Below, piece after piece: positions 11,753 through 32,881 of a stretch of 42,604 nucleotides of DNA. The stretch is from an uncultured Candidatus Saccharibacteria bacterium (GTDB lineage Bacteria > Patescibacteriota > Saccharimonadia > Saccharimonadales > CAYGIR01): positions 1 through 42,604 of the forward strand of contig CAYGIR010000001.1 in assembly GCA_964349985.1 (NCBI GenBank). The letters run 5' to 3'. The notes below the pieces were generated by a model. The model saw nothing but the letters and a program-made list of their open reading frames with translations, did not search any database and was not told where the DNA came from. The position numbers were made by a program, and so were the translations under genes. Position 1 is the stretch's first letter, and the number at the start of each line of letters is the position of its first letter.

Positions 11753-12174
11753 TCATGCTCCATAGTTAGGTAATCCGTTAGTATATAGCTGGCAGCCAAC
11801 GCGTCCACGGTTGCTTTACTAAACGACTTGCCACGACTACTTAACTCTGCCTCAGCCTTTACGGAAGTTAGGGCTTCATCCTGCCAAATAATTGGCAACT
11901 TGAAATGAGACTCCAGTTCGCGTCCGAACTCCCTAGTAAGGCGCGTTTGCATGGTATCCTGACCCTCCAAGCCTCTAGGCAGGCCTACCACAATACGCCC
12001 CACCTGGTTTTTGGTTATCACATCTCCAAGATTGTCCCAAAATTCAGTCCCTTGACGCGTCAAGGTTGTCAAAGGCACAGCCACTCGCACCCCTGCATAT
12101 GCCAGCGCCAGACCAACTCTCCGCTCCCCTACATCAAGTGCCAAAACATTATTGATTGGCATTATTCTGATCAA
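11749..12174 (-). CDS. ruvX: Holliday-junction resolvase-like nuclease RuvX (YqgF)
   Basis: LALDVGERRVGLALA, VVGLPRGLEGQDT and WQDEALTS are the YqgF family motifs. There is a 4-nt overlap with mltG. Confidence 0.9.
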   Translation of the reverse strand: MIRIMPINNVLALDVGERRVGLALAYAGVRVAVPLTTLTRQGTEFWDNLGDVITKNQVGRIVVGLPRGLEGQDTMQTRLTREFGRELESHFKLPIIWQDEALTSVKAEAELSSRGKSFSKATVDALAASYILTDYLTMEHD

Positions 12175-13852
12175 ATGTTATCGTGATGTGCTTTTGATTC
12201 TTTGGGGTAGAGTATACCCAGAAAGGGCTGTAGGTAATGGTTACGTCTTTGATGCCTGGACGCGCCAATATAAGTCCCTGTGCTTCACCTTTCTTCTTGC
12301 CGGCAATTTGTTTTTTGATACCATCCGCATCAAGTTGTGGACCGGCGATCGCCAGTGCCTTTACCTCAAACTTTATCTCATTAGCAGACGTTTTTTCCAG
12401 GATTTGAATTACGGCGTTGCTCAGACCATTATCCTGGATAACCTGTTTTGATACGTCAATATGTTTTTTAATATCTGTTTCTACTAACTCTTTCAGATCA
12501 TCTTCTTTAACACCGATTTGCCCAAATGTAATGGTTGCCGATACATTTACATCTGTCGCGGGCTCATTTACGTTTGGAGTACTCACTACTACCGGAGGGC
12601 TGGCAGTAAAAGTATCTGGCAATACCCGCAATTTTTCAGATGCGAACTGCGTCTTTAATTCGTTGGTTGCGCTTGTCGTAAGCCTGTCAATAATTTTTTG
12701 CCTGGCTTTGTCTATGTCCGCCTGGCTGGCAACTTGCACCAATTTACTTGTCCCGCCGGTCATAGCACTGCTTCCAGTGCCACTGACACCACTAATAGCG
12801 ATGCTGAACTGACGATTGGCACTCAGGTTGTACTGACCACCAGCACCCTGAGCGACCACTCCAACATTTCTGAATGAATCGTTTTTGCATGTTTCGCTGG
12901 GAAGTGTGAAATTACTCTGTGGAATAGCTACCGTTTCAGTAGTCACGAAGGCTATGGCAGTACCGGCGTTCGTAGTACTTAGGACCGTACCAGCTGGCAA
13001 AGTTATGCCATCCTCATTGTCTTTATTGCAATTAGTAATAGTCACCGTGCCCGTTGCTCGATTACCTTCATCACGCTGACCAGTGGCAGGCGTTTTTTCG
13101 GTGTCAGTTTTTTTGAGCTGCTTATTGATGGCGGGAATCAGTAGCTGTTCTCTATCGACGGACTTAGCGTCAACTTTGGCAGTAACGCGCAGAGTAGTAC
13201 TGACGTTTGTAGTATCGGTCTTGATGACAATCTTAGCTTTCGGCAAAATTACAAATGCAAATACTCCACCGACAATCAGCAATATTAATAACCCAATACC
13301 ACAAAAAAGCAACACCCTGAAACGATCAAAGTTGGGTATTTTTAGTTTTTTATTGATAGATTTTTTATTGTCTTTTTCTATTTTTGTCACCGCATCGTTA
13401 TCAATCACCGGCTCATCATTATCCAGATCTATAGTTTCTTCGGTAGCCACGTGTCCAGCCAACTGACCAATCGGCGCACGAGGATCAAGTGCCATATCGG
13501 GCTCGTCAACTACTTCATTTTCTACAATAACGCTGGTTTGTTTCAAAGCTGGAGACTCTGGAACTACAGGTTTACTTTGAAGCGTTTTGGATACGAGCAT
13601 ACCTGCCGCACCAGCGATTGGCAAAAGACCCGGATCAGAGGTAACAAGCACTAGATTTTTCCTGGCTTCAGTAGCGGTACGTTTAAGCAGCTTTAAATTA
13701 ACTATCGAATGCAAAGTGGCTGCTCGTTTAGGTAAAACTAAAGCGATAATTTTTGCATTCGAGCTACGAACCTTATCAATAATAAACGTAATTTCATCAT
13801 CCGCATCAATATAGATAGTGTCTTTGCTAGCTGGAGCTTTTTTTACACTCAT
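12149..13852 (-). CDS. Conserved hypothetical bitopic membrane protein (~190 aa cytoplasmic N-domain, one TM, ~350 aa extracellular region)
   Basis: The start is set at MSVKK (13852) because AGGA lies 8 nt upstream. N-domain: IYIDADDEITFIIDKVRSSNAKIIALVLPKRAATLHSIVNLKLLKRTA. TM: LLFCGIGLLILLIVGGVFAFVIL. No confident family assignment from sequence alone. Confidence 0.6.
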   Translation of the reverse strand: MSVKKAPASKDTIYIDADDEITFIIDKVRSSNAKIIALVLPKRAATLHSIVNLKLLKRTATEARKNLVLVTSDPGLLPIAGAAGMLVSKTLQSKPVVPESPALKQTSVIVENEVVDEPDMALDPRAPIGQLAGHVATEETIDLDNDEPVIDNDAVTKIEKDNKKSINKKLKIPNFDRFRVLLFCGIGLLILLIVGGVFAFVILPKAKIVIKTDTTNVSTTLRVTAKVDAKSVDREQLLIPAINKQLKKTDTEKTPATGQRDEGNRATGTVTITNCNKDNEDGITLPAGTVLSTTNAGTAIAFVTTETVAIPQSNFTLPSETCKNDSFRNVGVVAQGAGGQYNLSANRQFSIAISGVSGTGSSAMTGGTSKLVQVASQADIDKARQKIIDRLTTSATNELKTQFASEKLRVLPDTFTASPPVVVSTPNVNEPATDVNVSATITFGQIGVKEDDLKELVETDIKKHIDVSKQVIQDNGLSNAVIQILEKTSANEIKFEVKALAIAGPQLDADGIKKQIAGKKKGEAQGLILARPGIKDVTITYSPFWVYSTPKNQKHITITFDQNNANQ

Positions 13853-13871
13853 GAGTTTATTCCTATCACTT

Positions 13872-13954
13872 TGAGCAGTGAGCATTGAGCAGTGAGCAGT
13901 GAAATAAAATTACCGAACTGGGCTAACTCATTGCTCATTGCTCTTTGCTCTTTG
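13872..13954. repeat. Two inverted arrays of four tandem heptamers separated by a 24-nt spacer
   Basis: Left array TGAGCAG TGAGCAT TGAGCAG TGAGCAG (13872-13899). Right array CTCATTG CTCATTG CTCTTTG CTCTTTG (13927-13954). The arms are imperfectly complementary. Confidence 0.8.
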
Positions 13955-13957
13955 TTG

Positions 13958-15256
13958 TCATATTTGTAACATCCTGTCTAACCGATCCCTGACAGATCCT
14001 GGTCGTCTTGAACTATCCTGTGTCTGTAATGTATCCAAACCCACTCTTAGCAGACCCATCGCCGTAATAAACGTGTGATCATTTACATCTCCGGTCGCAT
14101 CAGTGATACCGACTACTTCGTCTGGTTGAATATGCTGGATGATCGGACGTTTCGTAAATGGCAATTCGCGGTACCAACTTGATTGTTCGAGCCGTTCCAT
14201 CAACATGTCCAGCGATGACCCACCTCCACATAGCAATATCTGGTTAGGTAGATGATCAGACATAGTAAACTCTCCCAATGCCAACTCTATACCACTAATC
14301 CAAACATCCAAAGTTTTATCCAATGCATGCTTGACTGTTGTAGCTTTAGCGGCGGTCAAATGCCGTGCTCCATAAGCTAGTTTAAACTCTTCTGCTTCCT
14401 TAAAACTAATCCCGAGTTGCCTTTCGATAGATCGCGTAAATGCCCGACCACCGATACCAAACATTTTTGTTCCCTGTACACCACCATCTTGTAGCACAGC
14501 GATGTCCGTCGTACCACCACCTACATCCATCAATATAGCACTCATGTTCGCATCAGTATCATTGCCTATGACAGACCTTGCTACTGCGAAAGGCTCAGCC
14601 GCAACCGCAACTAAATCCAGATCCAACTCCTGCGCTGTCCGCTCTAATGCCCCGATATGAATTAATGGTGCGAATGCCGTATAAAGTTGCACAACAACTT
14701 CCTTGCCCTGAAAACCAATTGGATTTGTAACGACGTAGCCATCAATGTCAATTCGAACCAGCGCGCTATTGACCAATCGTATCTCTACGTCTTTGCCACC
14801 GAGCTCCCAAGCTAGTTGCTGTTTTGCTTTCAACAGTGCCTTTTCTTGCACCAGACTAATTATTTGATCCGTTTCCTCCGTGTCCAAAGGCTTACTTGGA
14901 TTTTTGCGACGCACCCTCACCGTAGTTGTCGTACCTTTGACCAATTCGCCCGCTATCCCAATCACCGCCGTACGTACGCTTATGCCAGCTTGTTGTTCGG
15001 CGGTACTCAACGCGGTATCACAGTTACGCACTACGCCAGCAATATCAGAAATAGCACCAGCCTGCATATCCGCAAGCCCTTGATGCGCCCGTCCAACCCC
15101 AATAACTTGCAACTGATCACCTGCTACTTTGGCAATCAACACTTTTACAAACTCCGTGCCAATATCCAATCCAACAATATACTGTGGCTTAGAGCTGGAT
15201 TTTTTGCCACGAACCTTAGCAGCAATCTTTTTAATGTCTTTTAACTTCGTAACCAT
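13958..15256 (-). CDS. Actin-like ATPase of the FtsA family
   Basis: IVGLDIGTEFVKVLIA (phosphate 1), MDVGGGTTDIAV (phosphate 2), LLCGGGSSL (adenosine motif), AEEFKLAYG, and a C-terminal basic/amphipathic tail. No ftsZ lies downstream, so a cell-division role is not certain. Confidence 0.6.
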   Translation of the reverse strand: MVTKLKDIKKIAAKVRGKKSSSKPQYIVGLDIGTEFVKVLIAKVAGDQLQVIGVGRAHQGLADMQAGAISDIAGVVRNCDTALSTAEQQAGISVRTAVIGIAGELVKGTTTTVRVRRKNPSKPLDTEETDQIISLVQEKALLKAKQQLAWELGGKDVEIRLVNSALVRIDIDGYVVTNPIGFQGKEVVVQLYTAFAPLIHIGALERTAQELDLDLVAVAAEPFAVARSVIGNDTDANMSAILMDVGGGTTDIAVLQDGGVQGTKMFGIGGRAFTRSIERQLGISFKEAEEFKLAYGARHLTAAKATTVKHALDKTLDVWISGIELALGEFTMSDHLPNQILLCGGGSSLDMLMERLEQSSWYRELPFTKRPIIQHIQPDEVVGITDATGDVNDHTFITAMGLLRVGLDTLQTQDSSRRPGSVRDRLDRMLQI

Positions 15257-18224: not shown

Positions 18225-19436
18225 TTAAATTACAATACCACCACCCAAAACTCGTTCTCCGTCATATATTACGGCAGACTGTCCGAGAGTTATCGCCCGC
18301 ACCTGTTCAATTAATTCAACTTGGATGGTTGACGCATTTTGATGCATGCTCGTTTTAATAGACCTACCCAAAGCCTCCTCATCACCAGACCGACCCAGTC
18401 CGACGGTCCACGGTTCTTCTGCTTTCGATGCAATGGCTACGTCTTTTGCAGCCAAAACTGTTTTCGCATGGTCTGAATCACTCTGAGGATGAGTGATTTT
18501 AGGTAAGCCTAGTTTAAATCGAGCACCCACTAAAGGGGCTCTGTAACGTGTTCGAATTTGAAAAGGTCGATTCACGTCAGGTTGTTCGTTGATCCAATGA
18601 ACATCACTTAGCTGGATAGTGCTACGCCATAATCCGTCATCATTCAAATTCGTAGTCACATAAACTTCATTTTTGGACATATCCTTACCAATAACATAGT
18701 ACGGCAATCCGCCTCCAACTCTCATGCCATGTCGTTGCCCAGTAGTATAAAATATCGCTCCATCATGTTCACCAACTATTAAGCCGTGCTGATCTATCAA
18801 GGGTCCCGGTTCGGCCGTCACATATTGTTCCAAAAATTCCCGAATCCCTACTCTGCCGACAAAGCAAATCCCTTGACTGTCTTTTTTATCGGCCGTTGCC
18901 AGGCCCATTTTTTTGGCTATATGCCGGACTTCTTCCTTGGTTTTGAACTCCCCGATAGGCATCAATGACTTAGCCAAAGCAGTTTCTGTAACTCTATACA
19001 AAAAATAACTCTGATCCTTGTCTTTATTTTTTGCCGTCAGTAATTGACTATTCAGAATCCGACTGTAGTGACCAGTAGCAATCATATCGGCACCATCTGC
19101 CAGTGCCGTGCTCAAAAATAATTTAAACTTAATCTCTTGGTTACACATTACATCAGGATTAGGCGTGCGACCAGATCGATATTCAGCAATCATATAATCA
19201 ACGACTTTTTGTTTATATTCACCTTCAAAATCATACATCTTAAAATCTATGCCTAGTTGCACAGCCACTCGTTTGGCGTCTTGATAGTCTTCTTTCCAAG
19301 TACAAGCCATGCCTGGTATGTCCTGACTCCAATTTTTCATATAAACACCAACTACAGAATAACCTTGTTCCTTTAGCAATGCCGCCGTCACGGAGCTATC
19401 TACGCCACCACTCATTCCTACATAAACTGTCATCAT
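18225..19436 (-). CDS. mnmA: tRNA-specific 2-thiouridylase MnmA
   Basis: PP-loop VGMSGGVDSSV, the CNQEIKF catalytic-Cys region, QSYFLY, and C-terminal ITLGQSAVIYDGERVLGGGIV. Confidence 0.9.
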   Translation of the reverse strand: MMTVYVGMSGGVDSSVTAALLKEQGYSVVGVYMKNWSQDIPGMACTWKEDYQDAKRVAVQLGIDFKMYDFEGEYKQKVVDYMIAEYRSGRTPNPDVMCNQEIKFKLFLSTALADGADMIATGHYSRILNSQLLTAKNKDKDQSYFLYRVTETALAKSLMPIGEFKTKEEVRHIAKKMGLATADKKDSQGICFVGRVGIREFLEQYVTAEPGPLIDQHGLIVGEHDGAIFYTTGQRHGMRVGGGLPYYVIGKDMSKNEVYVTTNLNDDGLWRSTIQLSDVHWINEQPDVNRPFQIRTRYRAPLVGARFKLGLPKITHPQSDSDHAKTVLAAKDVAIASKAEEPWTVGLGRSGDEEALGRSIKTSMHQNASTIQVELIEQVRAITLGQSAVIYDGERVLGGGIVI

Positions 19437-19471: not shown

Positions 19472-20386
19472 CTAAAAGGGTCGCTGACCACGTTCAATTT
19501 TCTTGCGAAGCATGCGCAGTTCATAGCGTTTTCCAAGCCAAAAAGTCGTAAGTATCAACGGTATACTAATCGCCGCTGGTTGCCAAACAATGCGCGTTTT
19601 GGGGGTGGTAGTGGTAGCATCATCCTTTTTTTGACCGCCCGACGTACTATCTTGAGTTAACGCACCATTAGCTATGGCAACCAATTGCAAAAACGCACTT
19701 TCACCATTCTTGTCTGTTGCTTTTATGATGACATTGTATATACCAGGGCTATCGTAAGCATGCTCTATATTGAACGTACCGGGTGATTGTTGGCTTTTTA
19801 GATCAAGTGCCTTGCCGTCACCCCAATCTATACTAATAGCATACGGCACGATTCCGCCAGATAATATTATCGGCCAGCTTAAAGATTCGCCAGGATTAGC
19901 TCCGCGTTTTGCATAATTACTGGTCAAGGTTATACGCGCTCCCGTTCCTTGCCTGGAGTCATTGAAGCTTACGGTAACTTTGTTGGAATCTGGTCCGGCT
20001 TGATCCAGCGCATCATAAACCCGAGCAATAAGCTCATCCGTACCCGTAAACAGATCGATGCTGATAGAGAAGCTACCACTTGTACAAATCTGCGAACCGG
20101 CAAATACATTGTTTTTAAATAGTTTTACCAACAAGTCCTTAGGACAAATACCACTAACCGTAATTGGTAGAGTTGTAAACACCTGTCCATCCCTGGGCAA
20201 GCTAATAGTAGCGGCCTGCGTTGGCGGTGGCGCAGAAATCTTCCCTTCGAGCCCAACAGATCCGGTCGCTTGGGCGGCCCACGCGACATCGCCTAAGAGA
20301 ACAAATGCTCCAATACCGATCAACCATGCTATGACCATGAATAGTTTGCGTAATTTATTTAAATCAGCCATGTCCGTAGTACACAC
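19472..20386 (-). CDS. Surface protein with a PKD-like domain and a C-terminal TM anchor
   Basis: N-terminal signal/TM (FMVIAWLIGIGAFVLLGDVAWA), PKD-like ISIDWGDGKALDL...NIEHAYDSPGIYNVIIKATDKNGES, a Thr-rich linker, then ISIPLILTTFWLGKRYELRMLRKK. Confidence 0.6.
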   Translation of the reverse strand: MCTTDMADLNKLRKLFMVIAWLIGIGAFVLLGDVAWAAQATGSVGLEGKISAPPPTQAATISLPRDGQVFTTLPITVSGICPKDLLVKLFKNNVFAGSQICTSGSFSISIDLFTGTDELIARVYDALDQAGPDSNKVTVSFNDSRQGTGARITLTSNYAKRGANPGESLSWPIILSGGIVPYAISIDWGDGKALDLKSQQSPGTFNIEHAYDSPGIYNVIIKATDKNGESAFLQLVAIANGALTQDSTSGGQKKDDATTTTPKTRIVWQPAAISIPLILTTFWLGKRYELRMLRKKIERGQRPF

Positions 20387-20421
20387 CCTACATTAGCATA
20401 ATCCTAAAATAGTTTGAAAGA

Positions 20422-21417
20422 TTAAGCACGTTTCTTTTTATACGAACGAAAAACTTTCTTTCTGTACAGTATATAAGCTAGACCAGCCAATACTACAACC
20501 AAAATCACAACTATTAGCAAAAGCCATGTCGGTATGTACCAAAATGTACTTCTATGCGTAACCACTTCTCCGCCATTTCCGTAAGCCACCGAAACAATCA
20601 AACTGTACCTACCTGGTCGACGAATATTCTTGATGGGATCTGAAAAACTGCGCGAAGAATTGGCTAATATGATACCTTTTGGATCAGTATTATTAATTTC
20701 GTATCCGTAAACCTCTTTGCCCAAACTATCGTTTACAGTAACGCGTCCAAACGGTCTCGAAAAACCATTACCCATATTCTTAATAGCCACTACTGCCGTA
20801 TTAGGGCTTCTTATAAAAAATGTTCCGCCCTGCTTATCACGCTTCACTCCCGCACTAGTTATCTCGATTTGCTGATTTATGTCACCAGGCACATCAACAA
20901 AGACAAGATGCGCGACGCTTGCCGTTAAAGCTACCTGCCTTTGTTCGTTACGCACTTCAGACCCTCTAGGTATACTGGTGTATCTCAAGGCCCCAAAATA
21001 CGCGCCAGGGGATGCGCCAACAGGCATACTTATGGTTTGTTTAACTTCTTTGGTCTCTCCAGGCATTAAATCCAGGTCATTCATATCAGTAAGCATTGAT
21101 CGGAGCGAATTTTGTGTTGGCGGCTGTGTTTGATCTACAATAATTTGTGGGGTTCCACTTATACCATCTGAATTAAAATCATTTAATGATACCTTTATGG
21201 TTAGTGGATTTGGCGTAATGTTCTTTAGAAAGACGGAGAACACCTTTTGTTCGCCTGGTTGCATCACCAATTCTGTTCTAGTTGGTGATAGATATAAAGC
21301 ACTACCACCTCCCTGTTGGTTAGAGTCCTGTGCATGCACAGCCGAGATAGTCGGCAATAGCATAAGAACCGTAAAAAAAAGCGCTGATAATACTAACAAG
21401 GGTTTACGCAATGACAC
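20422..21417 (-). CDS. Secreted two-domain beta-sandwich protein with a C-terminal TM anchor, resembling DUF916/DUF3324 (CscA-type)
   Basis: GTG start with GGAGG 8 nt upstream and signal peptide ...PTISAVHA. Motifs: LVMQPGEQKVFSVFLKNITPNPLTIKVSLNDF, GAYFGALRY, GRYSLIVSVAY. C-terminal TM LLLIVVILVVVLAGLAYILY followed by RKKVFRSYKKKRA. The family call is by eye only. Confidence 0.5.
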   Translation of the reverse strand: MSLRKPLLVLSALFFTVLMLLPTISAVHAQDSNQQGGGSALYLSPTRTELVMQPGEQKVFSVFLKNITPNPLTIKVSLNDFNSDGISGTPQIIVDQTQPPTQNSLRSMLTDMNDLDLMPGETKEVKQTISMPVGASPGAYFGALRYTSIPRGSEVRNEQRQVALTASVAHLVFVDVPGDINQQIEITSAGVKRDKQGGTFFIRSPNTAVVAIKNMGNGFSRPFGRVTVNDSLGKEVYGYEINNTDPKGIILANSSRSFSDPIKNIRRPGRYSLIVSVAYGNGGEVVTHRSTFWYIPTWLLLIVVILVVVLAGLAYILYRKKVFRSYKKKRA

Positions 21418-21558
21418 TTATATATCCTCCAATTTATCTAGCATTCTTATGATTTATTAGTATAAGCACCTAGCCAAGGTCTGTCAATTTACATAATCCG
21501 AAGTTAAATGATCTACTGTTGTATAATACACAATATGATAGTTACTTGGATGATGGAT

Positions 21559-22602
21559 TCAAAAAGCGGCTACCGCAATATAGGTTAGCGTTGTAGTATA
21601 TATACCTGGTTGCTGATCGGGAGATATATTAATAATATAACTCGCTGTAAAATAGTTCATTTCTGATGGCATAGGGGCTGATGTTAATACTTGCGGACTA
21701 CCGAAAAAGAACTTATTTGAAATAGCATAATTAGGCGTTATTATTCCAACCCCCCCACCAAGAGGATCAGAGCCAACAACTGGGTTCGAGTTGGATCTTA
21801 GATTCATACCGAACTGACTAACCCCCGGTTGCGAAGCCTGTTGTGTAAGTAATCCCGGTATACTATTATTTCCTGAGGTCATGGTAGATCCCGTGATACT
21901 GGTCGAATAGCCTCCGGGATCATTTGTGGCAACCGCGAACTGTGATGTTAAAAAACTAGGTCGGACAATCGAAAGCTCTCCAAAGTTGAGCGAGAAACCT
22001 GATACGGTTTCACAATTAGTTGTAACCGTGACACCAACACAGAATGTCAGATAAGGTGGCACAAAACCGCTAACCGAAAGTGGTTCGACTGTAGCCAGAG
22101 CAATAGCCCCACTATCAGTTATCAAGCCGGTACCATCACTACTTGCGTACGTCGCCATGCGGACATATACGGTACTTGAAGGTAAATCATGATTTTTGAC
22201 ATTATCAAATGTAAATGAAACGGGTATATTCCCCAATAAGCTAGGGATGCGACTAATCACAATTCTGTTAACAGTACTGACCGGATCAATCACAAACCCA
22301 GTACCTCCTGTCTGATTACTCAGACCTGCTAAACTAGCAGAAAAGCCCGCAGGTGCCGTGCAAACAGTACCGACAAATGGCGTATTACTACAATATTCAA
22401 ATTCAATTGATCCAACCAAGCTAGATGTACCGATAGTAAAATCGAAACGATGGGTAGACATGGCACCAGGCATCGAGGTAGAAACCGTTACGGATCTATT
22501 ACTTAAAGTAGCAGCACTTACAGGCATAAACGACATTAGGGGGGTAACGACTATCAGTAAACACCCTAATATACAGATAGTTAATCTACTTAACCGTTGC
22601 AT
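21559..22602 (-). CDS. Secreted beta-rich protein, paralog A of the surface cluster
   Basis: Signal peptide ending VSA, mature N-terminus ATLSNRSVTVSTSMPGA, paired Cys (EYCSNTPFVGTVCT; TFCVGVTVTTNCE), and C-terminus GIYTTTLTYIAVAAF. Confidence 0.65.
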   Translation of the reverse strand: MQRLSRLTICILGCLLIVVTPLMSFMPVSAATLSNRSVTVSTSMPGAMSTHRFDFTIGTSSLVGSIEFEYCSNTPFVGTVCTAPAGFSASLAGLSNQTGGTGFVIDPVSTVNRIVISRIPSLLGNIPVSFTFDNVKNHDLPSSTVYVRMATYASSDGTGLITDSGAIALATVEPLSVSGFVPPYLTFCVGVTVTTNCETVSGFSLNFGELSIVRPSFLTSQFAVATNDPGGYSTSITGSTMTSGNNSIPGLLTQQASQPGVSQFGMNLRSNSNPVVGSDPLGGGVGIITPNYAISNKFFFGSPQVLTSAPMPSEMNYFTASYIINISPDQQPGIYTTTLTYIAVAAF

Positions 22603-22630
22603 GTAATATTCAGCCCCGTACTATCGTAAC

Positions 22631-24070
22631 TTAGAAAGTAGGAGTAGCAATGAAAGTGCTTGCAACGGTATATGTACCAGTAGGCGTAGTAGCGGCGGCG
22701 GCGGCACCAAAACGTAGCTTGACTAACTCATCATCTACAACAGTCGTAGAGCTAATTATTGCCTGTGCCACTCCGGTATCCCTCCATGCCATAAGATTAC
22801 CAGCTTCGGTGTTCTCGCAATTATCAGTCGCTACAGTATCCTGCAATTGAGCTAGAGTAGTATCACCGTTAGCATAGGAAGAGAAAAATCCTCCTGATGT
22901 CCCCGTGCCATTAGAACCAGCCGTTCCTAGATTAGATGTTGTACCAGCTGTTGTAGTGGCGGAATCGGTCACGCATACAATTTGCATCCCAAAACGTTCT
23001 GTACCGATGGCTAATGTTTCGCCAGCAGTATTATCAGTACTCACGAAACAGGAGTCACCAACAAATGCCGCTGACGCGTTACACGTACTACCGGCCACCC
23101 TAAAGGACTGTAGCTGGTTAGTACCGCTCGTCGCAGGAGTAGCATAGTAGCTCAAGGTCACCCCGTTAGCGGCATTTGTATTAATCATTGCGGCACCAAA
23201 TCGAGCGTTCCCAAGTGCTGTTGGGGGGGAGTTAGCAACTGGCGATCTAGCGATACTTGTATTATCAATAACGCCAAGATCTACGTTGGAACTGGCGGTT
23301 GCTTCCGCAGCCGTACAATCAGTTGGAAAATTTGTCGCTGCAGTACCTACGGTAGCTGATGACCCAGCAGCATCATCAAGCGCGAATACGCAAAATACCA
23401 ATCGCTCCTGTACCCTTCCAGTAACCGTGAGTTGATTAACTATAGAAGCTGCAACCGTACCAGTATCTACGGCTGTCGCAAAGCTAGAATCAGAGTATGT
23501 TGTAATACGTACGTAAATTTGTTCGTTATTCCCCGCCGCGATAATGGGGTTGCTGATACTGTTAATCACGAAGGTTTTAGCACCAGCAGCTTCGTTAGCA
23601 GCTTGAGTACGTTGTACGCAGTACATGGTTGCTACTCCAGATCCACCATCACCTTCTGAACAGGCACCCAAATCCGCGCCAGAATATTCTGTAAATGCCG
23701 TAGCATTGGTACCGGTGAAAGCACCTGGAGCGGCAGTTACGTTCGACACATCGATCTTTTCTGAGGCAAGCGGGCTACCGTCAGTGCCTGGCAGTACACA
23801 AGTCCCTAATGGTGTATTGCAAAATTGGAACGTCATGGATTGAATAGCCGCAACCGTAATAGTTGTAAACCCGAATGAATAGTTCACTCCGGTTGCGTCA
23901 GGCTGTGAAGTCGCAATGGTCACGCTACGACTTGATAAAGTCGCGGCGCTAGCACTACTCTGAAATAATAATGGTAGCAAACCACTCACAGATAACATTA
24001 AAGCTAAAGTTACAAGTCTTGCTTTTCGCCCTATCTGGCGGAAATTATAATCTTTGAAAAAATCTATCAT
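22631..24070 (-). CDS. Secreted beta-rich protein, paralog B of the surface cluster
   Basis: Signal peptide ending ASA, mature N-terminus ATLSSRSVTIATSQPDA, paired Cys (QFCNTPLGTCV; VFCVFALDD...TDCT), and C-terminus GTYTVASTFIATPTF. Rich in Ala, Thr, Gly and Ser. Confidence 0.65.
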   Translation of the reverse strand: MIDFFKDYNFRQIGRKARLVTLALMLSVSGLLPLLFQSSASAATLSSRSVTIATSQPDATGVNYSFGFTTITVAAIQSMTFQFCNTPLGTCVLPGTDGSPLASEKIDVSNVTAAPGAFTGTNATAFTEYSGADLGACSEGDGGSGVATMYCVQRTQAANEAAGAKTFVINSISNPIIAAGNNEQIYVRITTYSDSSFATAVDTGTVAASIVNQLTVTGRVQERLVFCVFALDDAAGSSATVGTAATNFPTDCTAAEATASSNVDLGVIDNTSIARSPVANSPPTALGNARFGAAMINTNAANGVTLSYYATPATSGTNQLQSFRVAGSTCNASAAFVGDSCFVSTDNTAGETLAIGTERFGMQIVCVTDSATTTAGTTSNLGTAGSNGTGTSGGFFSSYANGDTTLAQLQDTVATDNCENTEAGNLMAWRDTGVAQAIISSTTVVDDELVKLRFGAAAAATTPTGTYTVASTFIATPTF

Positions 24071-24161
24071 GCTATATTACATTCCTTTTTGTTTATTTTT
24101 TATTAATCATCGATTCATTTATAGCATAAGTATATTACTAAAACAAGTACTTATCCACATA

Positions 24162-24950
24162 TCAGTAGGTTGGGACAACAATAAGATCGTGACGCATAGT
24201 ATAAGTTCCAGCCTTAGAAATATTGCTCGCTTTAGCGATATAACTTATCGTATAATTAGTTTTCCCCACTCCTTGATTACCGGCAGTTGCCTGCGAACGC
24301 GCTATGATATCGCCAACCCCGTATTTAAATTGATTGGTGGTCTGATAGCCATTAGCCACTTGTCCGTCAGCGAAACTATTGTCTGGGTCATTTGTAAGAT
24401 TCGCTCCAAAAACCCCGGGAGATGTATTGCTCACCAAATTTATACCAAATTCCTCAACGCTAGTACTACCGGATGGTGGTCCTTGCGTGCCTTTTGCCGT
24501 TAGCGAATTATTGCTTTCGCTCGTCGGTGGCTGGCTAGCCGTCACAACCGTATAGCCAGAAGATGTATAAGTTCTAACATAAAATGTACAATTGCACGTT
24601 CCGCCCTGTGATGAAATATACGATGTTGTTGAGGCTGATAAAGTACCCAAATCTACATTCGGTCCAGTTATCCCAACCTCAAGAAAGGGCTCCCCCGCGG
24701 TTAAGTATCCTGCCTCAGAGTCATAATTAGTACTGGATCCCGAGCCAACGCCCAGACCACCAACCGAGCTCTGAGCTCGATAAGATCCCGCAGTGGCATC
24801 AAGCTCCCCGCCGGTGCCAAACATTACTTGATTGACCTGATAATTACCGGATGAATATGTTTGCGCCAAGGCACCCCTAGGAGTAGCCAACAACAATACA
24901 ACCAAGAGATTTATAAAACCCAACCATTTCATGACTATCAATAATAACAC
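24162..24950 (-). CDS. Secreted beta-rich protein, third related member of the surface cluster
   Basis: Signal peptide ...PRGALAQ, an N-terminal S-x-NY/SY repeat region (SSGNYQVNQVMFGTGGELDATAGSYRAQSSVGGLGVGSGSSTNYDSEAGY), EEFGINL as in the paralogs, and C-terminus GTYTMRHDLIVVPTY. The GTG start directly follows the upstream TAG; an alternative ATG is at 24932. Confidence 0.6.
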   Translation of the reverse strand: MLLLIVMKWLGFINLLVVLLLATPRGALAQTYSSGNYQVNQVMFGTGGELDATAGSYRAQSSVGGLGVGSGSSTNYDSEAGYLTAGEPFLEVGITGPNVDLGTLSASTTSYISSQGGTCNCTFYVRTYTSSGYTVVTASQPPTSESNNSLTAKGTQGPPSGSTSVEEFGINLVSNTSPGVFGANLTNDPDNSFADGQVANGYQTTNQFKYGVGDIIARSQATAGNQGVGKTNYTISYIAKASNISKAGTYTMRHDLIVVPTY

Positions 24951-25637
24951 CTATCTGGTCTGAAAGGTATCCATGATAGCTTGTAGTTCTTGTCCATCCA
25001 AAGTCGCCTTGAGACTACGATAATAGATAAAATAGGCTACTATTTCTCCGCCAGGTCGCTTAATACGCAATGAAGTATCGCCACCCTTCAAGCCAACCAC
25101 AACAGTGTATTCAGTACCATCAACATCGCAAAGCATAGTAACCCCGCCAATAACAACTTGTTGTCGACTTTGTTTATTTGAATTATTTAAGTCCTTACCG
25201 CAATGATCAGACACGGAATCTGAAGTTACTATTCCGTTAATATCAAAGCCTATGGGTAATACTCGTGTTGCCTCCTGCGTCTCGGGAGATAGGCTCTGAT
25301 TGACATATATTTTCAATTCGCTTTCAACCAAACCGAATCTAAAGTTACGATAAACGAACGTACTCGCGGTTGATTCATTGTTGATAGATCTCCATGTTTT
25401 GGCTGCCTGAAATTGAAAATATTGAGTACTAAACACTTCCGTAGAAGCAAGATATTTCGATTTGACTATTTGCGTTGGATTTGAAGGCCGTTGTGATTGT
25501 TTATTTGCCCTATAGCTATCCTGTACAAAATACCCGCCTAGCAATAAAAACAATACAATGACAAAAAAGATTATTTTGTGGGCATATTTAGAGATAAGCA
25601 ACCGATAATGACTCTGTTCATACCTATATCTAGACAT
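24951..25637 (-). CDS. Hypothetical N-terminally anchored protein, first gene of the surface cluster
   Basis: AGAGG RBS, TM IIFFVIVLFLLLGGYFV, then a ~180 aa extracytoplasmic domain. No family recognised. Confidence 0.5.
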   Translation of the reverse strand: MSRYRYEQSHYRLLISKYAHKIIFFVIVLFLLLGGYFVQDSYRANKQSQRPSNPTQIVKSKYLASTEVFSTQYFQFQAAKTWRSINNESTASTFVYRNFRFGLVESELKIYVNQSLSPETQEATRVLPIGFDINGIVTSDSVSDHCGKDLNNSNKQSRQQVVIGGVTMLCDVDGTEYTVVVGLKGGDTSLRIKRPGGEIVAYFIYYRSLKATLDGQELQAIMDTFQTR

Positions 25638-25840: not shown

Positions 25841-26830
25841 ATGGAAAATCAACCGTCGGACGAAAATGAACTGAATACGTTGGAGGAGTCAAGCACAGAG
25901 CTTGACGGTCAAGAACCAACCACGACTGGGACAACTAACGAACCTGTGTCTACCGCTGTTCCTAGCCCAAAAAAACAATTTAGCCTCAAGGGCGGCATTC
26001 AGGGCTTAATTGGACGTCTTAATATATATTTGCTCATATTCGTGCTAATCATCGTACTGACCACCGGCTTTACAATCGCGAGTATCCAGCGAAACAAAAA
26101 AGAAGACACTCCGGTGTCCATAGAAACTCAGGCTCTAACAGAAGAAACCCTCAAAAAGCTTAATTCCAGCGATGCCAAAATTGGTGATCCAAAACAAACA
26201 TTATTGGTAGAGTCCAACGCAATATTCGCTGGCAAAGTATTGATAAAGGATAGCCTTGACGTAGCCGGAACCATAAAAGTTGGCGGAGCACTAAGTTTGC
26301 CTGGATTAACGGTCGCCGGAAATAGCACTTTGGACCAGATTCAAGGCAATAGCTTGACTATATCCGGAGATGCCAACATTCAAGGTCAGCTGACAGCCCA
26401 AAAAGGCATCACAGTCACTGGGGGCGGTAGTTTTGGCGGACCAATATCCGCGCCACAAATCACAATCCAGAGCCTTCAACTAAGTGGAGATTTGCAGCTA
26501 CAACGCCATATTGATGCCGGCGGCACGGCTCCAGGCAAAACCGATGGTCCCAAACTCGGTTCTGGTGGCACATCCAGCGTCAGCGGAACAGACACAGCAG
26601 GTACCGTAACAATTAATCTAGGGGGCAACCTTCCGCAAGGTGATGGCTGTTTTGTAACTATTAACTTCACCCAAAAATTCAACGATATTCCACATGTTGT
26701 AATTACGCCGATTGGACCCGGTGCCGCTGGTCTAAACTATTATGTCAACCGAACGAATACAAATTTTCAGGTTTGCGCTACCAATGCTTCATCCGGTAGT
26801 TTCTCATTCGACTATATAGTCATCGATTAA
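25841..26830 (+). CDS. Membrane-anchored protein with a beta-helix-like repeat stalk and a C-terminal H-type-lectin-like domain
   Basis: Acidic, Thr-rich N-terminus and TM IYLLIFVLIIVLTTGFTIASI. Repeats: VLIKDSLDVAGTIKVGGALSLPGLTVAGNSTLDQIQGNSLTISGDANIQGQLTAQKGITVTGG. The C-terminus VTINFTQKFNDIPHVVITPIG...VNRTNTNFQVCA...FSFDYIVI fits the H_lectin pattern by eye. Confidence 0.5.
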   Translation: MENQPSDENELNTLEESSTELDGQEPTTTGTTNEPVSTAVPSPKKQFSLKGGIQGLIGRLNIYLLIFVLIIVLTTGFTIASIQRNKKEDTPVSIETQALTEETLKKLNSSDAKIGDPKQTLLVESNAIFAGKVLIKDSLDVAGTIKVGGALSLPGLTVAGNSTLDQIQGNSLTISGDANIQGQLTAQKGITVTGGGSFGGPISAPQITIQSLQLSGDLQLQRHIDAGGTAPGKTDGPKLGSGGTSSVSGTDTAGTVTINLGGNLPQGDGCFVTINFTQKFNDIPHVVITPIGPGAAGLNYYVNRTNTNFQVCATNASSGSFSFDYIVID

Positions 26831-29298: not shown

Positions 29299-30815
29299 TT
29301 TGTTGCCTCTTCTTTATCCTTGGCAGCAGATTTTGTTGTAACATCAAACTCAGTAGGGGGCGGAACAACAACGGGTGCCGGAGACGCGCCTTTTAGTTCT
29401 ACCCTTACTTTAGCCGATAACTCGTCTCGTAGCTTGTCATACTTTGTGTCATCAGTAATTTTTCCTGCGTATTCAGAAACATGTAGTTTCAAGGCTGAGG
29501 TATCCAAAACATCGCCATCATTGAGGTTCAGAATAATATCTAGCATTAGTTGCTGTGCCATGAACGAATAAGTATCTGAGGGGCTCTGCGTGAGCATCTC
29601 AAAAATGTATTTACCAGTTTGGAGAGCCTTCTTAGCCTCCAGTGCAAGTTCTGAGCCAAAGTGTGAAAACTCCTCCGCCTGACGATAATCAGCCAGAAGT
29701 TTTAACGTTTGGGCCGCCAGAGCTTTTTGACGCTTGTTGTGTCCAACCCCACCCACGCGAGTCACGCTCAGACCTATATTAATTGCCGGACGTATACCAT
29801 TTCTAAAAATATCCATGTCTAAAATCCATTGCCCATCTGTAATCGACATAATGTTAGTAGGTAAATATGCGGTTATATCACCACCGGCGGCATTCACTAG
29901 AGGCAAACTGGTCAAATGCGCACCATTAGAGTCCAAACGCCCGGCTCGTTCAAGCAGGCTGGAGTGCGCAAAGAACATATCGCCAGGATATGAATCACGC
30001 CCCGGACTGATGCCACTCATCAAGGCCACCTCTCTATAAGCATGTGCGTGACTAGTGAGATCATCATAAATAATGATTGTATCTTGGGCCAGTTGTTGCC
30101 AAAGATACTCTGCCATAGCCACTCCCACATACGGTGCTATATAGCTCATGATCAAGGACTCAAACATAGTGCTCACTATAACGATAGCCTTTTCCAGCCC
30201 ACCGTTTTCTTTGAGGCGGGTCAGCAAAGTGTCCACATCGCTTCGACGTTTGGCAATCAGTACATACACCACTACTTGATCGGTATTTTTTTGATTGATA
30301 GTAAGTTGGGTTACGAGCGTACTTTTGCCAGATTTGCCATCTCCCAATAGTGCCATACGTTGTCCGCGTAAGACCGGAAAAAGAGCATCGATAACCGTTA
30401 CACCACTTTCGAGTTGCGTATCAAGCAATTTACGAGCATACAATGGTGGCGCCGTATTAAAGACCGGCCAGACCGCGTCGGCCGCGATTGGACCCTTACC
30501 ATCCATTGGTTCGCCCATAACAGTTATCACTCGACCAACAAAATCCTTCCCCACCTTGCAAACCAATTCTTGATGTTGTACAACTCCAACCATGCCAGGT
30601 CGTAACGTAATCGCACCTAAATGCAACACAACGACATAATCTGTCTGAATTTGATTTACAAAACCCTTACTACCATCTTCGAACATAACAAGAGCATGAA
30701 TATTACAAGGCTGCAAACCACGAACACGCACCAAAAACTTGTCTACCGCGATAACTTCACCAACTGGATTCCCTCCGGCGACAAGCTTATCAAAATGTTG
30801 ATTACCGGAATTCAT
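29295..30815 (-). CDS. atpA: F1 alpha-like subunit (divergent P-loop, C-terminal extension)
   Basis: The P-loop is GDGKSGKST, where canonical alpha has GDRQTGKT. Also [40 protein letters not shown] and ITDGQWILD. There is an extra ~35 aa Pro/Lys/Glu tail. Confidence 0.85.
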
Positions 30816-31399
30816 GCGACAGATCCTTCAGTCACAGTTACTGTAGCTACCGGTTTGGCCGGTTCAATGAGGTGCAGTTTAGAAATAAGTAACTCCTTTT
30901 GTGCGCTGAATCTGGTACGCAAACTAAAATCATGATATTTATTTGTAGTACGAACTACACAACCCGCACCAATGTTAGGATGCAGACCTATCTGCAATAA
31001 TACGAGTGGGTGAATCTGCTGACGAATCCATGTAATCAAACGTTGCTGAAACATCGGCGAAGGATCCGTACTAAAACTAATGTGCAAGGTTGGAGCAGTC
31101 GAACGAACAGCTACCAAAAAACGCATGAGCAATTGCCGGTCGGCTTGCTGTAACATATTGAGCTTGTTGATCGCAACGACTTCATCAAACAAACGGCTTG
31201 ATTTAGGAAGTTGGATAGGGTTTCCTGTCTGCCGAATAGCCGCTTGACCTAGAAAGTTATCCACTGCCTCAGCTTCTTGAACCAATCGTCCGACATCACT
31301 ATGCGTAACAACCCCCAATGGTAGTTGCAATCCTGTCGTGACAGATTTTGATATGAATTCATTCGAGTTAGCAGATTGAGGTATCGGTTCAACTCCCAT
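30812..31399 (-). CDS. Delta/OSCP-like subunit (only the C-terminal part is recognisable)
   Basis: It occupies the delta position between the b-like and alpha genes. The C-terminal [30 protein letters not shown] resembles the OSCP motif (d..l.GG.vv..g....D.S....l). The N-terminal half is not recognisably OSCP. Confidence 0.5.
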
Positions 31400-32009
31400 T
31401 GGTGATATCCTCTATAATGTCCTTTTTGTTCTCATTCAGCTCACTCAAAATGTATTCCAACTGATCATTCAGGTCAATTTGATTGCCAATAGCTGCCAAA
31501 ACGTAATGATTGACGATATCCGCCATGTTTTCTTCAAAGTGCTTTAGTAAACGTGATTTTTCATTGGCAATCTCTTGGGCCATCTGTTGACTCATCATTT
31601 GTCGTTGTTGCTCAATAGCCGCTTGCGTTTTGGTAATTGATTCTAGTGCTAATTCCTTGGCATCAGATATGGATTCTTCGTATTTAGCAAACTCTTCTTG
31701 TAATTTTTGAGTAATTTCCGACTTCATGTATTCGTTTAGCTGAGAAGTGGTCAATCTTAGATCTTGCTGAAGAAACATCGCGTTTTCACCAATTATTTTT
31801 TCAAAGTGCAACCGCCCCCGATTACGTAGCTCCTCCCGGAACTCCTCATTAAATAAGTGTTCCGTGTCTCTTTCTGCTAGTTCAGTCAGTGATTCACTGG
31901 AGCCAGTGGACTTGTGGCTTGCCTTTAATTGGGTAGCTAAATACACAAAAGCGGCTGTAGCGGCCCCGATTATACCGAGTGTTAGTATAAGTCCGTATAT
32001 GTCAGTCAT
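31389..32009 (-). CDS. b-like stator-stalk subunit (single N-terminal TM plus long coiled coil)
   Basis: TM LILTLGIIGAATAAFVYLA followed by ~170 aa of Glu/Gln/Lys-rich heptad-like helix. It occupies the atpF position. Confidence 0.55.
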   Translation of the reverse strand: MTDIYGLILTLGIIGAATAAFVYLATQLKASHKSTGSSESLTELAERDTEHLFNEEFREELRNRGRLHFEKIIGENAMFLQQDLRLTTSQLNEYMKSEITQKLQEEFAKYEESISDAKELALESITKTQAAIEQQRQMMSQQMAQEIANEKSRLLKHFEENMADIVNHYVLAAIGNQIDLNDQLEYILSELNENKKDIIEDITNGS

Positions 32010-32032
32010 CTATGCCCACCCCGTTACTTGTC

Positions 32033-32881
32033 TTATAACCTTAAGATTAAATATACTCCAAAAACTCCCGTAATGAAAATAATTATACCAGTCAAAACTA
32101 CTTGTAGCATACCGCGGATAATGGATTTTCGACTTAAAGGGTTACGACCTATAGAGATAATCCCACTACGCACCCCACTAAACAATAAACTACCCGCCAC
32201 AACTGCGGTAATCCCGAAAACAAGAACGCTCACGTATACCCTAGCGGCATTAACCGGCTTACCAGCTATTGTTTCGGCAACTTTTCGTAAAGCACCAGGT
32301 AGGTTTGGTTCTACTGCTTTGAGTAGAGGGTTTTTGGCAATTCCTACATCAACTTCAATACGCCCGATATCCACCCGGTGTGATGCTCCGGTGCTATCCT
32401 TGACATCCATAGTACTGATAACCCCTTTGCTGCCATCAAATTCGGCAACCGCTCTACCGATTACGAATGGTTGAATCGTCCCAGCTTTCATGCCAATACC
32501 CGCTAAAGCTGATACTACAATATAATCACCAATTACAATCTTACCCGCTTGAGTGCTCACCAAAACTTCACTACGGCCATTATTCGCGACGAAAACTTTC
32601 TGCCCATCGCTTGCCAAGGATATCGGGGAATCGTTGGAATTTACCACGACTCCATGCATGTGTTCAGAAGCGTCACTATCTACCGGCTCAACTTTTGTGA
32701 CATCGTTCTTTTTCAATCGCACAATCATGCCACGTTGCAGGGCTTGATCCGCATAATAACCTGTTGTAACAGATTGCGCGCTAATCGGCGAATAAACACT
32801 GGCAGCAATCAACAACTGTAGTCCAATCAATGCGAGTATGCGTTGCCAAGTAAGATAGTTCTTTATTTTTGTCTTGATCAT
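32033..32881 (-). CDS. Signal-peptide protein: ~190 aa extracytoplasmic beta-rich domain fused to a C-terminal c-subunit-like helical hairpin lacking the carboxylate
   Basis: Signal peptide ...SVYSPISAQS. The C-terminus VLVFGITAVVAGSLLFSGVRSGIISIGRNPLSRKSIIRGMLQVVLTGIIIFITGVFGVYLILRL has two Gly-rich TM helices joined by an R-N-P loop, like F/V-type c subunits. Neither helix contains a D or E. Confidence 0.55.
   Translation of the reverse strand: MIKTKIKNYLTWQRILALIGLQLLIAASVYSPISAQSVTTGYYADQALQRGMIVRLKKNDVTKVEPVDSDASEHMHGVVVNSNDSPISLASDGQKVFVANNGRSEVLVSTQAGKIVIGDYIVVSALAGIGMKAGTIQPFVIGRAVAEFDGSKGVISTMDVKDSTGASHRVDIGRIEVDVGIAKNPLLKAVEPNLPGALRKVAETIAGKPVNAARVYVSVLVFGITAVVAGSLLFSGVRSGIISIGRNPLSRKSIIRGMLQVVLTGIIIFITGVFGVYLILRL

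Follow-up and report, generated by a model that had tools for sequence, protein, structure and literature searches.

Extracellular filaments termed Pam pili have been described in Candidatus Mycosynbacter amalyticus (Troman et al., 2026; bioRxiv 10.64898/2026.03.03.709456), where cryogenic electron microscopy (cryo-EM) revealed thin filaments that are polymers of two pilins, PamA (55 kDa) and PamB (39 kDa). The M. amalyticus operon also codes for PamE, an additional pilin; for PamT, a tip subunit that consists of a C-terminal domain only; for PamC and PamD, PapD/FimC-like chaperones whose C-terminus bears a transmembrane helix; and for PamR, an anchored, RbmA-like protein that is the proposed terminator. 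The donor strand in Pam pilins is the linker between the two domains and not an N-terminal extension, and this linker, together with the binding site in the C-terminal domain, forms the most conserved part of the pilins. The pam genes occupy a conserved neighbourhood with ATP synthase genes and a central tail-fibre-like protein, and the system has been claimed to be exclusive to the candidate phyla radiation (CPR) (Troman et al., 2026). Here we analyse a stretch of 42,604 nt of contig CAYGIR010000001.1, from an uncultured member of the Saccharimonadia (CPR/Patescibacteria). Within this stretch, referred to below as the window, a cluster of six genes on the minus strand (19472-25637) is very probably a compact pam operon, specifying an extracellular pilus that would be built by donor-strand exchange and be free of an usher. 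We further report that its membrane-anchored chaperone is related to a surface protein of Firmicutes, WxLIP.

WxLIPs are encoded in the Csc/WxL clusters of Firmicutes, in which a WxLIP (CscA), with the architecture DUF916-DUF3324-transmembrane helix, is accompanied by WxL proteins (Hassan et al., 2023, PMC10599100; Siezen, 2006). To be classed as such a cluster, a locus must combine, within four genes, one or more WxLIPs with two or more WxL proteins, and AlphaFold predicts that a hairpin of the WxLIP becomes a strand that completes the β-sandwich of the WxL protein (Hassan et al., 2023, PMC10599100). An initial annotation of the window, made from the DNA alone, had named the six genes a Csc/WxL-like cluster in a genome that did not look like that of a Firmicute, and the two systems are compared throughout.

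Identity of the six-gene cluster

The six open reading frames (ORFs), all on the minus strand, were found at the coordinates given in the initial annotation, and the topologies proposed there for their products were borne out by hydropathy for all six proteins and by AlphaFold2 models for two of them, p331 and p347 (proteins are named here by their length in amino acids); every sequence motif that it had quoted is also present. Pfam is nearly silent on the six proteins, the notable signals being a sub-threshold match of p331 to PF06030 and a weak PKD match of p304. The NCBIfam collection, by contrast, holds three models that derive from the M. amalyticus preprint, namely NF058578 (the PamR equivalog), NF058579 (the PamT equivalog) and NF058581 (Pam pilin C). 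The last gene of the cluster, p304, scores 399.7 bits against NF058578, CPR_pilus_PamR (cutoff 300; residues 34-299 of 304), while NF058581, CPR_Pam_pilin_C, recognises both p347 (145.8 bits against a cutoff of 55; residues 201-347) and p262 (105.4 bits; residues 95-262). It is on these matches that a Pam pilus operon fits the cluster better than the Csc/WxL-like name first given to it.

The resemblance to the M. amalyticus operon extends well beyond single genes. Both loci have a PamR equivalog match, a pilin C domain in small and two-domain pilins, a PamT-like protein with a C-terminal domain only, a paralogous pair of large and small two-domain pilins, and a chaperone made of two immunoglobulin (Ig)-like domains and a C-terminal transmembrane helix. 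They also have in common the gene order T-A-E-D-R, the neighbourhood of ATP synthase and tail-fibre-like genes and a host within the Saccharimonadia. That the order in the window is the one in M. amalyticus is implied by the accession numbers of the latter (289, 287, 285, 284 and 282). The present analysis shows which genes the cluster contains, their orthology to the Pam models of NCBIfam, their conserved order and neighbourhood, the protein folds, and the kinship of the chaperone to WxLIP and to the chaperones of chaperone-usher systems.

Several points nevertheless weigh against this assignment. The score of p262 against NF058579, CPR_pilus_PamT, is 221.2 bits, under the cutoff of 240, even though the alignment covers residues 12-262 of 262; p262 is very likely an orthologue of PamT, but one that stays under the curated threshold. 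The larger pilin, p479, has only a weak direct match to NF058581 (14.8 bits), and no NCBIfam model matched the chaperone, p331. Foldseek searches with the p347 model returned generic tandem two-Ig adhesins, among them integrin legs and MSCRAMMs, with CfaE, PapG and BslA included. The positions of PamA, PamE and PamD were set by gene order and published descriptions. In the preprint itself, only the PamA/PamB filaments are experimental, the other roles and the assembly pathway resting on AlphaFold predictions (Troman et al., 2026), and for the operon in the window filaments are a prediction. There are also differences in content. The window has a single chaperone where M. amalyticus has two, and PamR is not followed by a PamB/PamC module, so that the assembly order of M. 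amalyticus may not carry over. In addition, p479 (479 aa as a precursor) is smaller than the 55-kDa PamA, and the cluster opens with a conserved, N-terminally anchored 228-aa protein that is not named in the text of the preprint.

Conservation among Saccharimonadia

Scanning 185,579 species genomes by pattern for members of the p331 family yielded 47 independent, related loci, which were then compared with the genes of the window by tblastn. All 47 come from metagenome-assembled genomes of Saccharibacteria, Saccharimonadia or Patescibacteria, in keeping with the early impression of a non-Firmicute genome, and the six cluster genes show 24-70% identity across them. Nearly everywhere the arrangement is atpD-atpC-(tail-fibre-like gene, opposite strand)-p228-PamT-p479 (one to three copies)-p347-p331-PamR-mnmA-alaS. 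Conserved co-occurrence of the six genes had been set beforehand as a test of the initial annotation, and the order proved to be identical in 20 of the 28 loci that are fully contained; in the remaining eight, p228 has moved or is missing, there is an extra pilin, or the chaperone gene is inverted. Conservation of the cluster is far beyond chance.

Tandem duplication or triplication of the p479-type pilin was seen in 10 of the 28 loci (L009, L013, L017, L019, L025, L032, L039-L041 and L044), and pilin copy number is the main variable of the Pam system. The compact form, with one chaperone and without PamB/PamC, predominates among the related loci sampled. A single anchored chaperone therefore appears to be enough in these loci.

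The pilin subunits

Family alignments were built from the 47 related loci and the resulting profiles compared by hhalign. This identified p479 and p347 as full-length paralogues (probability 100%, E=2e-40, 325 columns), with the extra length of p479 accounted for by insertions in both domains. Residues 87-262 of p262 match the C-terminal domain of p347 (residues 182-347; E=1e-26), and the C-terminal domain of p479 (residues 257-479) matches PamT (E=2e-7); it is this C-terminal domain alone that PamT shares with p347 and p479. The AlphaFold2 model of p347, with a predicted local distance difference test (pLDDT) score of 89.1, is all-β and consists of two β domains separated by a flexible hinge. 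Residues V181, P182, P183, C188, G190 and C197, which are invariant, lie around this hinge, and their clustering there fits the conserved linker and C-terminal binding site described for Pam pilins (Troman et al., 2026).

A further feature of the secreted proteins, a terminal G-x-Y-T...[FY] strand to which the initial annotation had drawn attention, is real and near-universal. A terminal phenylalanine or tyrosine with a glycine 14 residues upstream (G-x-Y...aromatic) occurs in 123 of 124 pilin sequences, and is found likewise in the C-terminal strand of p262 (G-x-Y...Y-COOH). This spacing of glycine and terminal aromatic residue is typical of the C-termini of subunits in chaperone-usher systems, where it is a classical motif, and is not a WxL motif. 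Sequence comparison of p331, p479, p347 and three family profiles (A1, A2 and A3) with the PDB gave no meaningful match, and neither PamA/PamB nor WxLIP/WxL chains were recovered.

The public gene call for p347 (P0121) is 325 aa long and loses the hydrophobic core of the signal peptide; because homologues are around 346 aa, the ATG at 22602, which gives a protein of 347 aa, is to be preferred as the start. For PamT, too, the public call is shorter, at 259 aa rather than 262.

Kinship of the chaperone with WxLIP

p331 is composed of a signal peptide, two β-sandwich domains (residues 41-150 and 167-294), a C-terminal transmembrane helix (297-330) and a basic tail, YRKKVFRSYKKKRA, and its AlphaFold2 model has a pLDDT score of 87.9. 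The best Pfam match of p331 is PF06030 (DUF916, now WxLIP_PGBD), at 23.8 bits and so just under the cutoff of 27.3. The same family matches 44 of the 47 members of the p331 family (best E=6.5e-10), and a precomputed PF06030 annotation is attached to about half of the p331 homologues among the matches listed. Foldseek gave a concordant result, in that the top PDB matches of the p331 model are 9i1y and 9i25 (E=1.5e-11, around 273 aligned columns), crystal structures of Enterococcus faecium WxLIP from 2026, the second of them bound to a long WxL protein. These are followed by RbmA, and then by chaperones of chaperone-usher systems, with CfaA, YadV, Caf1M, CsuC, DraB, FimC and PapD matching at E values between 3e-9 and 4e-7.

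For comparison at the level of profiles, authentic WxLIPs were recovered via the tryptic peptides of EfmWxLIP3 that Hassan et al. (2023, PMC10599100) give in their Table S13. The Pam-chaperone family aligned with 37 Firmicute WxLIPs over 227 co-linear columns (hhalign probability 97.2%, E=2.9e-11), as it did when the alignment was built independently (97.6%, E=4.7e-12). Among the controls, the five other Pam families reached no more than 13%, and the tail-fibre-like family reached 55% through its transmembrane helix only. The N-terminal (DUF916) domains of the p331 and WxLIP families also match when taken by themselves (93.9%, E=1.6e-7), whereas the second domains alone do not match significantly (7.5%) and cross-domain comparisons stay below 1%; the second domain of p331 aligns with WxLIP only co-linearly, in the full-length hhalign and Foldseek alignments. 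At E<=0.01, none of the 47 family members matches DUF3324 (PF11797), and none matches PapD_N or PapD_C (PF00345, PF02753), the likeness to the latter being one of fold only.

Homology between p331 and WxLIP in the DUF916 domain is, in our judgement, probable. We conclude that their homology covers the first domain at the least, and that they have their overall architecture in common, from the signal peptide through the two Ig domains to the transmembrane helix and basic tail. The proposal that the 331-aa protein resembles CscA therefore holds for the PF06030 match, the profile alignment and the fold, and does not extend to a recognisable DUF3324 domain. The least confident segment of the p331 ectodomain (around residues 151-166) overlaps with the most conserved block of the protein, R160-V176, RQVALTASVAHLVFVDV, and this block aligns with a WxLIP region in the full-length hhalign alignment. 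In view of the overlap between low model confidence and high conservation, the block is a plausible G1-like candidate for a donor strand. The link between Pam chaperones and WxLIP may be new: it is absent from the Pam preprint, and was not found in the literature searched on WxLIP, none of which concerns the CPR or Pam.

Comparison with authentic WxL clusters

Four authentic WxL loci, from Enterococcus faecalis, Carnobacterium gallinarum, Peribacillus simplex and Enterococcus pallens (L051, L053, L054 and L055), were compared with the cluster in the window. The gene order in these clusters is mostly a small LPXTG protein of 111-113 aa, a pair of small WxL proteins, a single large WxL adhesin and then the WxLIP; the large adhesin is not always in the same place, and the next gene is often one for a sortase, for a protein of about 148 aa or for a Mga-type regulator. 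In outline the Pam and WxL clusters are alike: in each, a small subunit that consists of the C-terminal domain only precedes larger subunits to which N-terminal domains have been added, and these precede an anchored two-Ig protein. In both, too, a donated strand is predicted to complete the C-terminal domain of the secreted subunits.

The likeness does not reach the sequences of the subunits, and the suggestion that the three secreted proteins are relatives of WxL proteins was not upheld. The WxL family PF13731 has no match at E<=1 in p262, p479 or p347, and the W-x-L motif is absent from all three, p347 having no tryptophan at all, whereas the 13 domains from the four WxL loci carry W-x-L motifs, both of them in 12 cases. 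Alignment of the Pam pilin families with these 13 domains gave less than 1% in hhalign, a weak negative given how shallow the WxL alignment is, and there was no WxL chain in the top 50 Foldseek matches of the p347 model. Neither an LPXTG protein nor a sortase nor a Mga regulator was found in the cluster. As the defining WxL subunit is lacking, the cluster is not a member of the WxL class. It differs further from Csc/WxL clusters in its host, which belongs to the CPR and not to the Firmicutes, and in its product, which by orthology would be a long filament and not a wall-bound complex.

PamR, p228 and the tail-fibre-like neighbour

The PKD matches of p304 are weak (E=4e-5, below the cutoff), and the C-terminus of the protein consists of a hydrophobic stretch and then a basic tail. 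PamR lies directly downstream of the chaperone gene, with 38-70% identity, in every related locus but one that reaches beyond this gene. RbmA, the biofilm scaffold of Vibrio cholerae (PDB 4kkp), has tandem fibronectin type III (FnIII)/Ig domains, as does PamR, which is described as RbmA-like; PamR differs in being anchored in the membrane at its C-terminus and in having an additional strand at its N-terminus. One related locus (L032) has a second PamR-like gene after alaS (13411-14343, 30% identity).

The stop codon of p228 abuts the start of PamT. The protein has an extracytoplasmic domain of about 185 aa, in which C146 and C170 are invariant, and 30 of the related loci encode it, with 24-43% identity; as a rule its gene lies immediately upstream of PamT, and in a few loci between the last pilin and the chaperone. 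An exhaustive search of 1.84 billion proteins found 236 representatives, all of about 225 aa and with the same architecture. No credible match to p228 was obtained in Pfam, NCBIfam or the PDB, and hhalign found it unrelated to the other Pam families; both it and PamR scored below 2% against the small LPXTG proteins and the proteins of about 148 aa from WxL clusters. A match to PDB entry 6m6z was rejected, since this is a designed transmembrane protein and the match reflects the transmembrane helix only, and an assignment to PsbP_2 was too weak to keep (3 of 24 members at E of about 0.01). With low confidence, we suggest that p228 may be an initiation or assembly factor. As a conserved, N-anchored protein that the preprint text does not name, it is worth keeping as a candidate.

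The tail-fibre-like gene adjoins the cluster in all 28 fully contained loci. Its product has a weak bactofilin-like β-helix match (PF04519, E=2.5e-4) and a faint C-terminal match to H-type lectins, and it is uncertain whether it forms part of the Pam system.

A model for assembly

By analogy with the M. amalyticus preprint, from which filament formation, the order of the subunits and the roles of chaperone and terminator would be carried over, assembly may proceed as follows. All products would be exported by Sec, and p331 would be held in the cytoplasmic membrane by its C-terminal helix. As each pilin was exported, p331, acting in the manner of PapD or FimC, would insert a β-strand into its C-terminal domain, which is Ig-like and open. 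PamT, having a C-terminal domain only, would start the filament and cap its tip, after which p479 and p347 would polymerise, the inter-domain linker strand of each subunit being donated to the C-terminal domain of its neighbour. Growth would be ended by the N-terminal strand of PamR, which would also tether the filament to the membrane. Neither an usher nor an outer membrane would be needed for any of these steps. The pilus is likely to serve in contact with, or adhesion to, a host bacterium.

Alternative explanations

The kinship of p331 with WxLIP raises the possibility that the cluster specifies a surface complex of the Csc/WxL type, in which p331 would hold secreted, non-polymerising proteins on the cell surface, much as WxLIP keeps WxL proteins on the peptidoglycan of Firmicutes, without any filament being formed. 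The PF06030 matches, the hhalign and Foldseek results and the parallel layout of authentic WxL loci all speak for such a complex, as does the AlphaFold prediction that WxLIP completes the WxL β-sandwich by a strand (Hassan et al., 2023, PMC10599100). What speaks against it is the absence of any WxL domain or motif, the lack of alignment between pilins and WxL domains, the failure to detect PF11797 in any family member and the absence of an LPXTG protein or sortase from the cluster. Moreover, NCBIfam assigns PamT, PamR and the pilin C domain to Pam, and PamA and PamB are filament subunits by cryo-EM in M. amalyticus. We accordingly consider a complex of this kind improbable. Even less probable is that the secreted proteins are monomeric adhesins in the style of MSCRAMMs or antigen I/II, encoded beside an unrelated anchored Ig protein, with strand insertion serving to 'dock, lock and latch' a ligand. 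Foldseek does place ClfA, SdrG, SdrC, FnBPA, CNA and antigen I/II C-terminal domains among the top matches of p347, but the TM-scores are low (0.15-0.26), as is typical of generic tandem Ig domains, and a cell-wall anchor is absent from the pilins themselves. Complementation between subunits is what the terminal G-x-Y...aromatic strand, the single-domain PamT and the co-conserved chaperone-like gene point to, and NCBIfam assigns these proteins to Pam families.

The remaining alternative, that the cluster encodes a chaperone-usher pilus of the classical kind which came from a Gram-negative bacterium, is effectively refuted. There are several points of contact with the Pap/Fim, CFA/I, Caf1 and Csu pili: the two-Ig chaperone fold, by which p331 matches CfaA, Caf1M, CsuC, FimC and PapD; the donor-strand logic; a tip subunit without a donor strand; and a C-terminal strand in which glycine precedes the terminal aromatic residue by 14 positions. 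Against this, the cluster has no ORF of the size of an usher, its longest product being 479 aa, and no usher family of Pfam or NCBIfam was matched by any of the six proteins. The Pfam PapD signal is likewise absent, the chaperone is membrane-anchored and the pilins are two-domain proteins. Nor is there any sign of acquisition, the flanks being core housekeeping genes, the base composition even and all relatives members of the CPR. Patescibacteria are generally regarded as having no outer membrane. The model in the preprint likewise does without one (Troman et al., 2026).

Gene layout and genomic setting

The features of the cluster and its immediate neighbour are collected in Table 1. From p228 to p304, successive genes are separated by gaps of 0, 91, 28, 141 and 35 bp.

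Table 1. Coordinates and properties of the pam cluster and adjoining features; positions are those of the window
Feature	Position	Strand	Description
p228, first cluster gene	24951-25637	-	228 aa; N-anchored, transmembrane helix 22-40
p262, PamT-like tip pilin	24162-24950	-	262 aa; signal peptide, Gly/Ser-rich N-terminal region, single Pam pilin C-terminal (truncated-Ig) domain
p479, large two-domain pilin, PamA position	22631-24070	-	479 aa; signal peptide, N-terminal β-sandwich, conserved hinge, enlarged C-terminal pilin domain, 10 Cys
p347, small two-domain pilin, PamE position (PamE/PamB class)	21559-22602	-	347 aa; signal peptide, N-terminal domain ~34-171, hinge 175-179, C-terminal domain ~185-345
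Sigma-70-like promoter match	21459-21487	-	TTGACA-17-TATACT, 11/12 consensus; within the 141-bp gap 5' of the chaperone gene
p331, membrane-anchored chaperone, PamD position (PamC/PamD class)	20422-21417	-	331 aa; WxLIP/CscA-like
p304, PamR	19472-20386	-	304 aa; signal peptide, tandem Ig/FnIII-PKD-like domains, C-terminal membrane anchor
Tail-fibre-like protein	25841-26830	+	329 aa, N-anchored, transmembrane helix 64-82; divergent from p228

A scan of the region for promoters and terminators gave site counts that were not above shuffled expectation. The position of the near-consensus sigma-70-like site, in the gap that precedes the chaperone gene, hints at a separate chaperone-PamR transcript, though as a consensus match only. 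No further Pam-like gene and no second chaperone or pilin module is present elsewhere in the window. On one side the cluster is adjoined by the tail-fibre-like gene and by atpC, atpD, atpG and atpA, and on the other mnmA follows directly after PamR. The flanks as a whole consist of housekeeping genes, among them alaS, mnmA, the ATP synthase operon, obg, ruvX and metG, and GC content is uniform over the whole window, from which it follows that the cluster belongs to the chromosomal core and is not an island.

Some of the neighbouring genes are unusual in their own right. MnmA (18225-19436, minus strand) is 403 aa long, whereas the median in relatives is about 355 aa, and in many loci only some 75% of it is covered by tblastn, which points to an insertion close to the C-terminus that is specific to the lineage. 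Within the ATP synthase operon, three ORFs encoding proteins of 195, 206 and 282 aa (30812-32881, minus strand) have no Pfam match at E<=1e-5; these are presumably the delta, b and a subunits, which suggests that the stator subunits are very divergent. Further away, a 578-aa ORF with no Pfam match adjoins a gene for an FtsA/PilM-like actin-fold protein (12149-13885 and 13958-15256, both on the minus strand).

Implications

The Pam system has already been described and modelled in NCBIfam, and the locus in the window adds little to it when taken alone. The significance lies rather in the link between Pam chaperones and WxLIP, which joins a structurally characterised filament of the CPR to an adhesion and virulence cluster that is widespread in Gram-positive bacteria and poorly understood. 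It suggests that the WxLIP of Firmicutes is a chaperone-like strand donor. Because Pam chaperones are homologous to WxLIP/CscA, the claim that the Pam system is exclusive to the CPR also needs to be qualified.

A broader reading, which we put forward as doubtful, is that the Pam pilus and the Firmicute Csc/WxL complex are two branches of an ancient, usher-less, single-membrane system built around an anchored, strand-donating chaperone of the WxLIP/PamC-D type. The evidence supports homology of the chaperones and neither supports nor excludes homology of the subunits. Were this reading true, the exclusivity of Pam to the CPR would hold for the pilins only, and the C-terminal domain of Pam pilins would have its counterpart, in highly diverged form, in the WxL domain. 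By the same token, WxL proteins might be assembled, and even polymerised, by donor-strand complementation.

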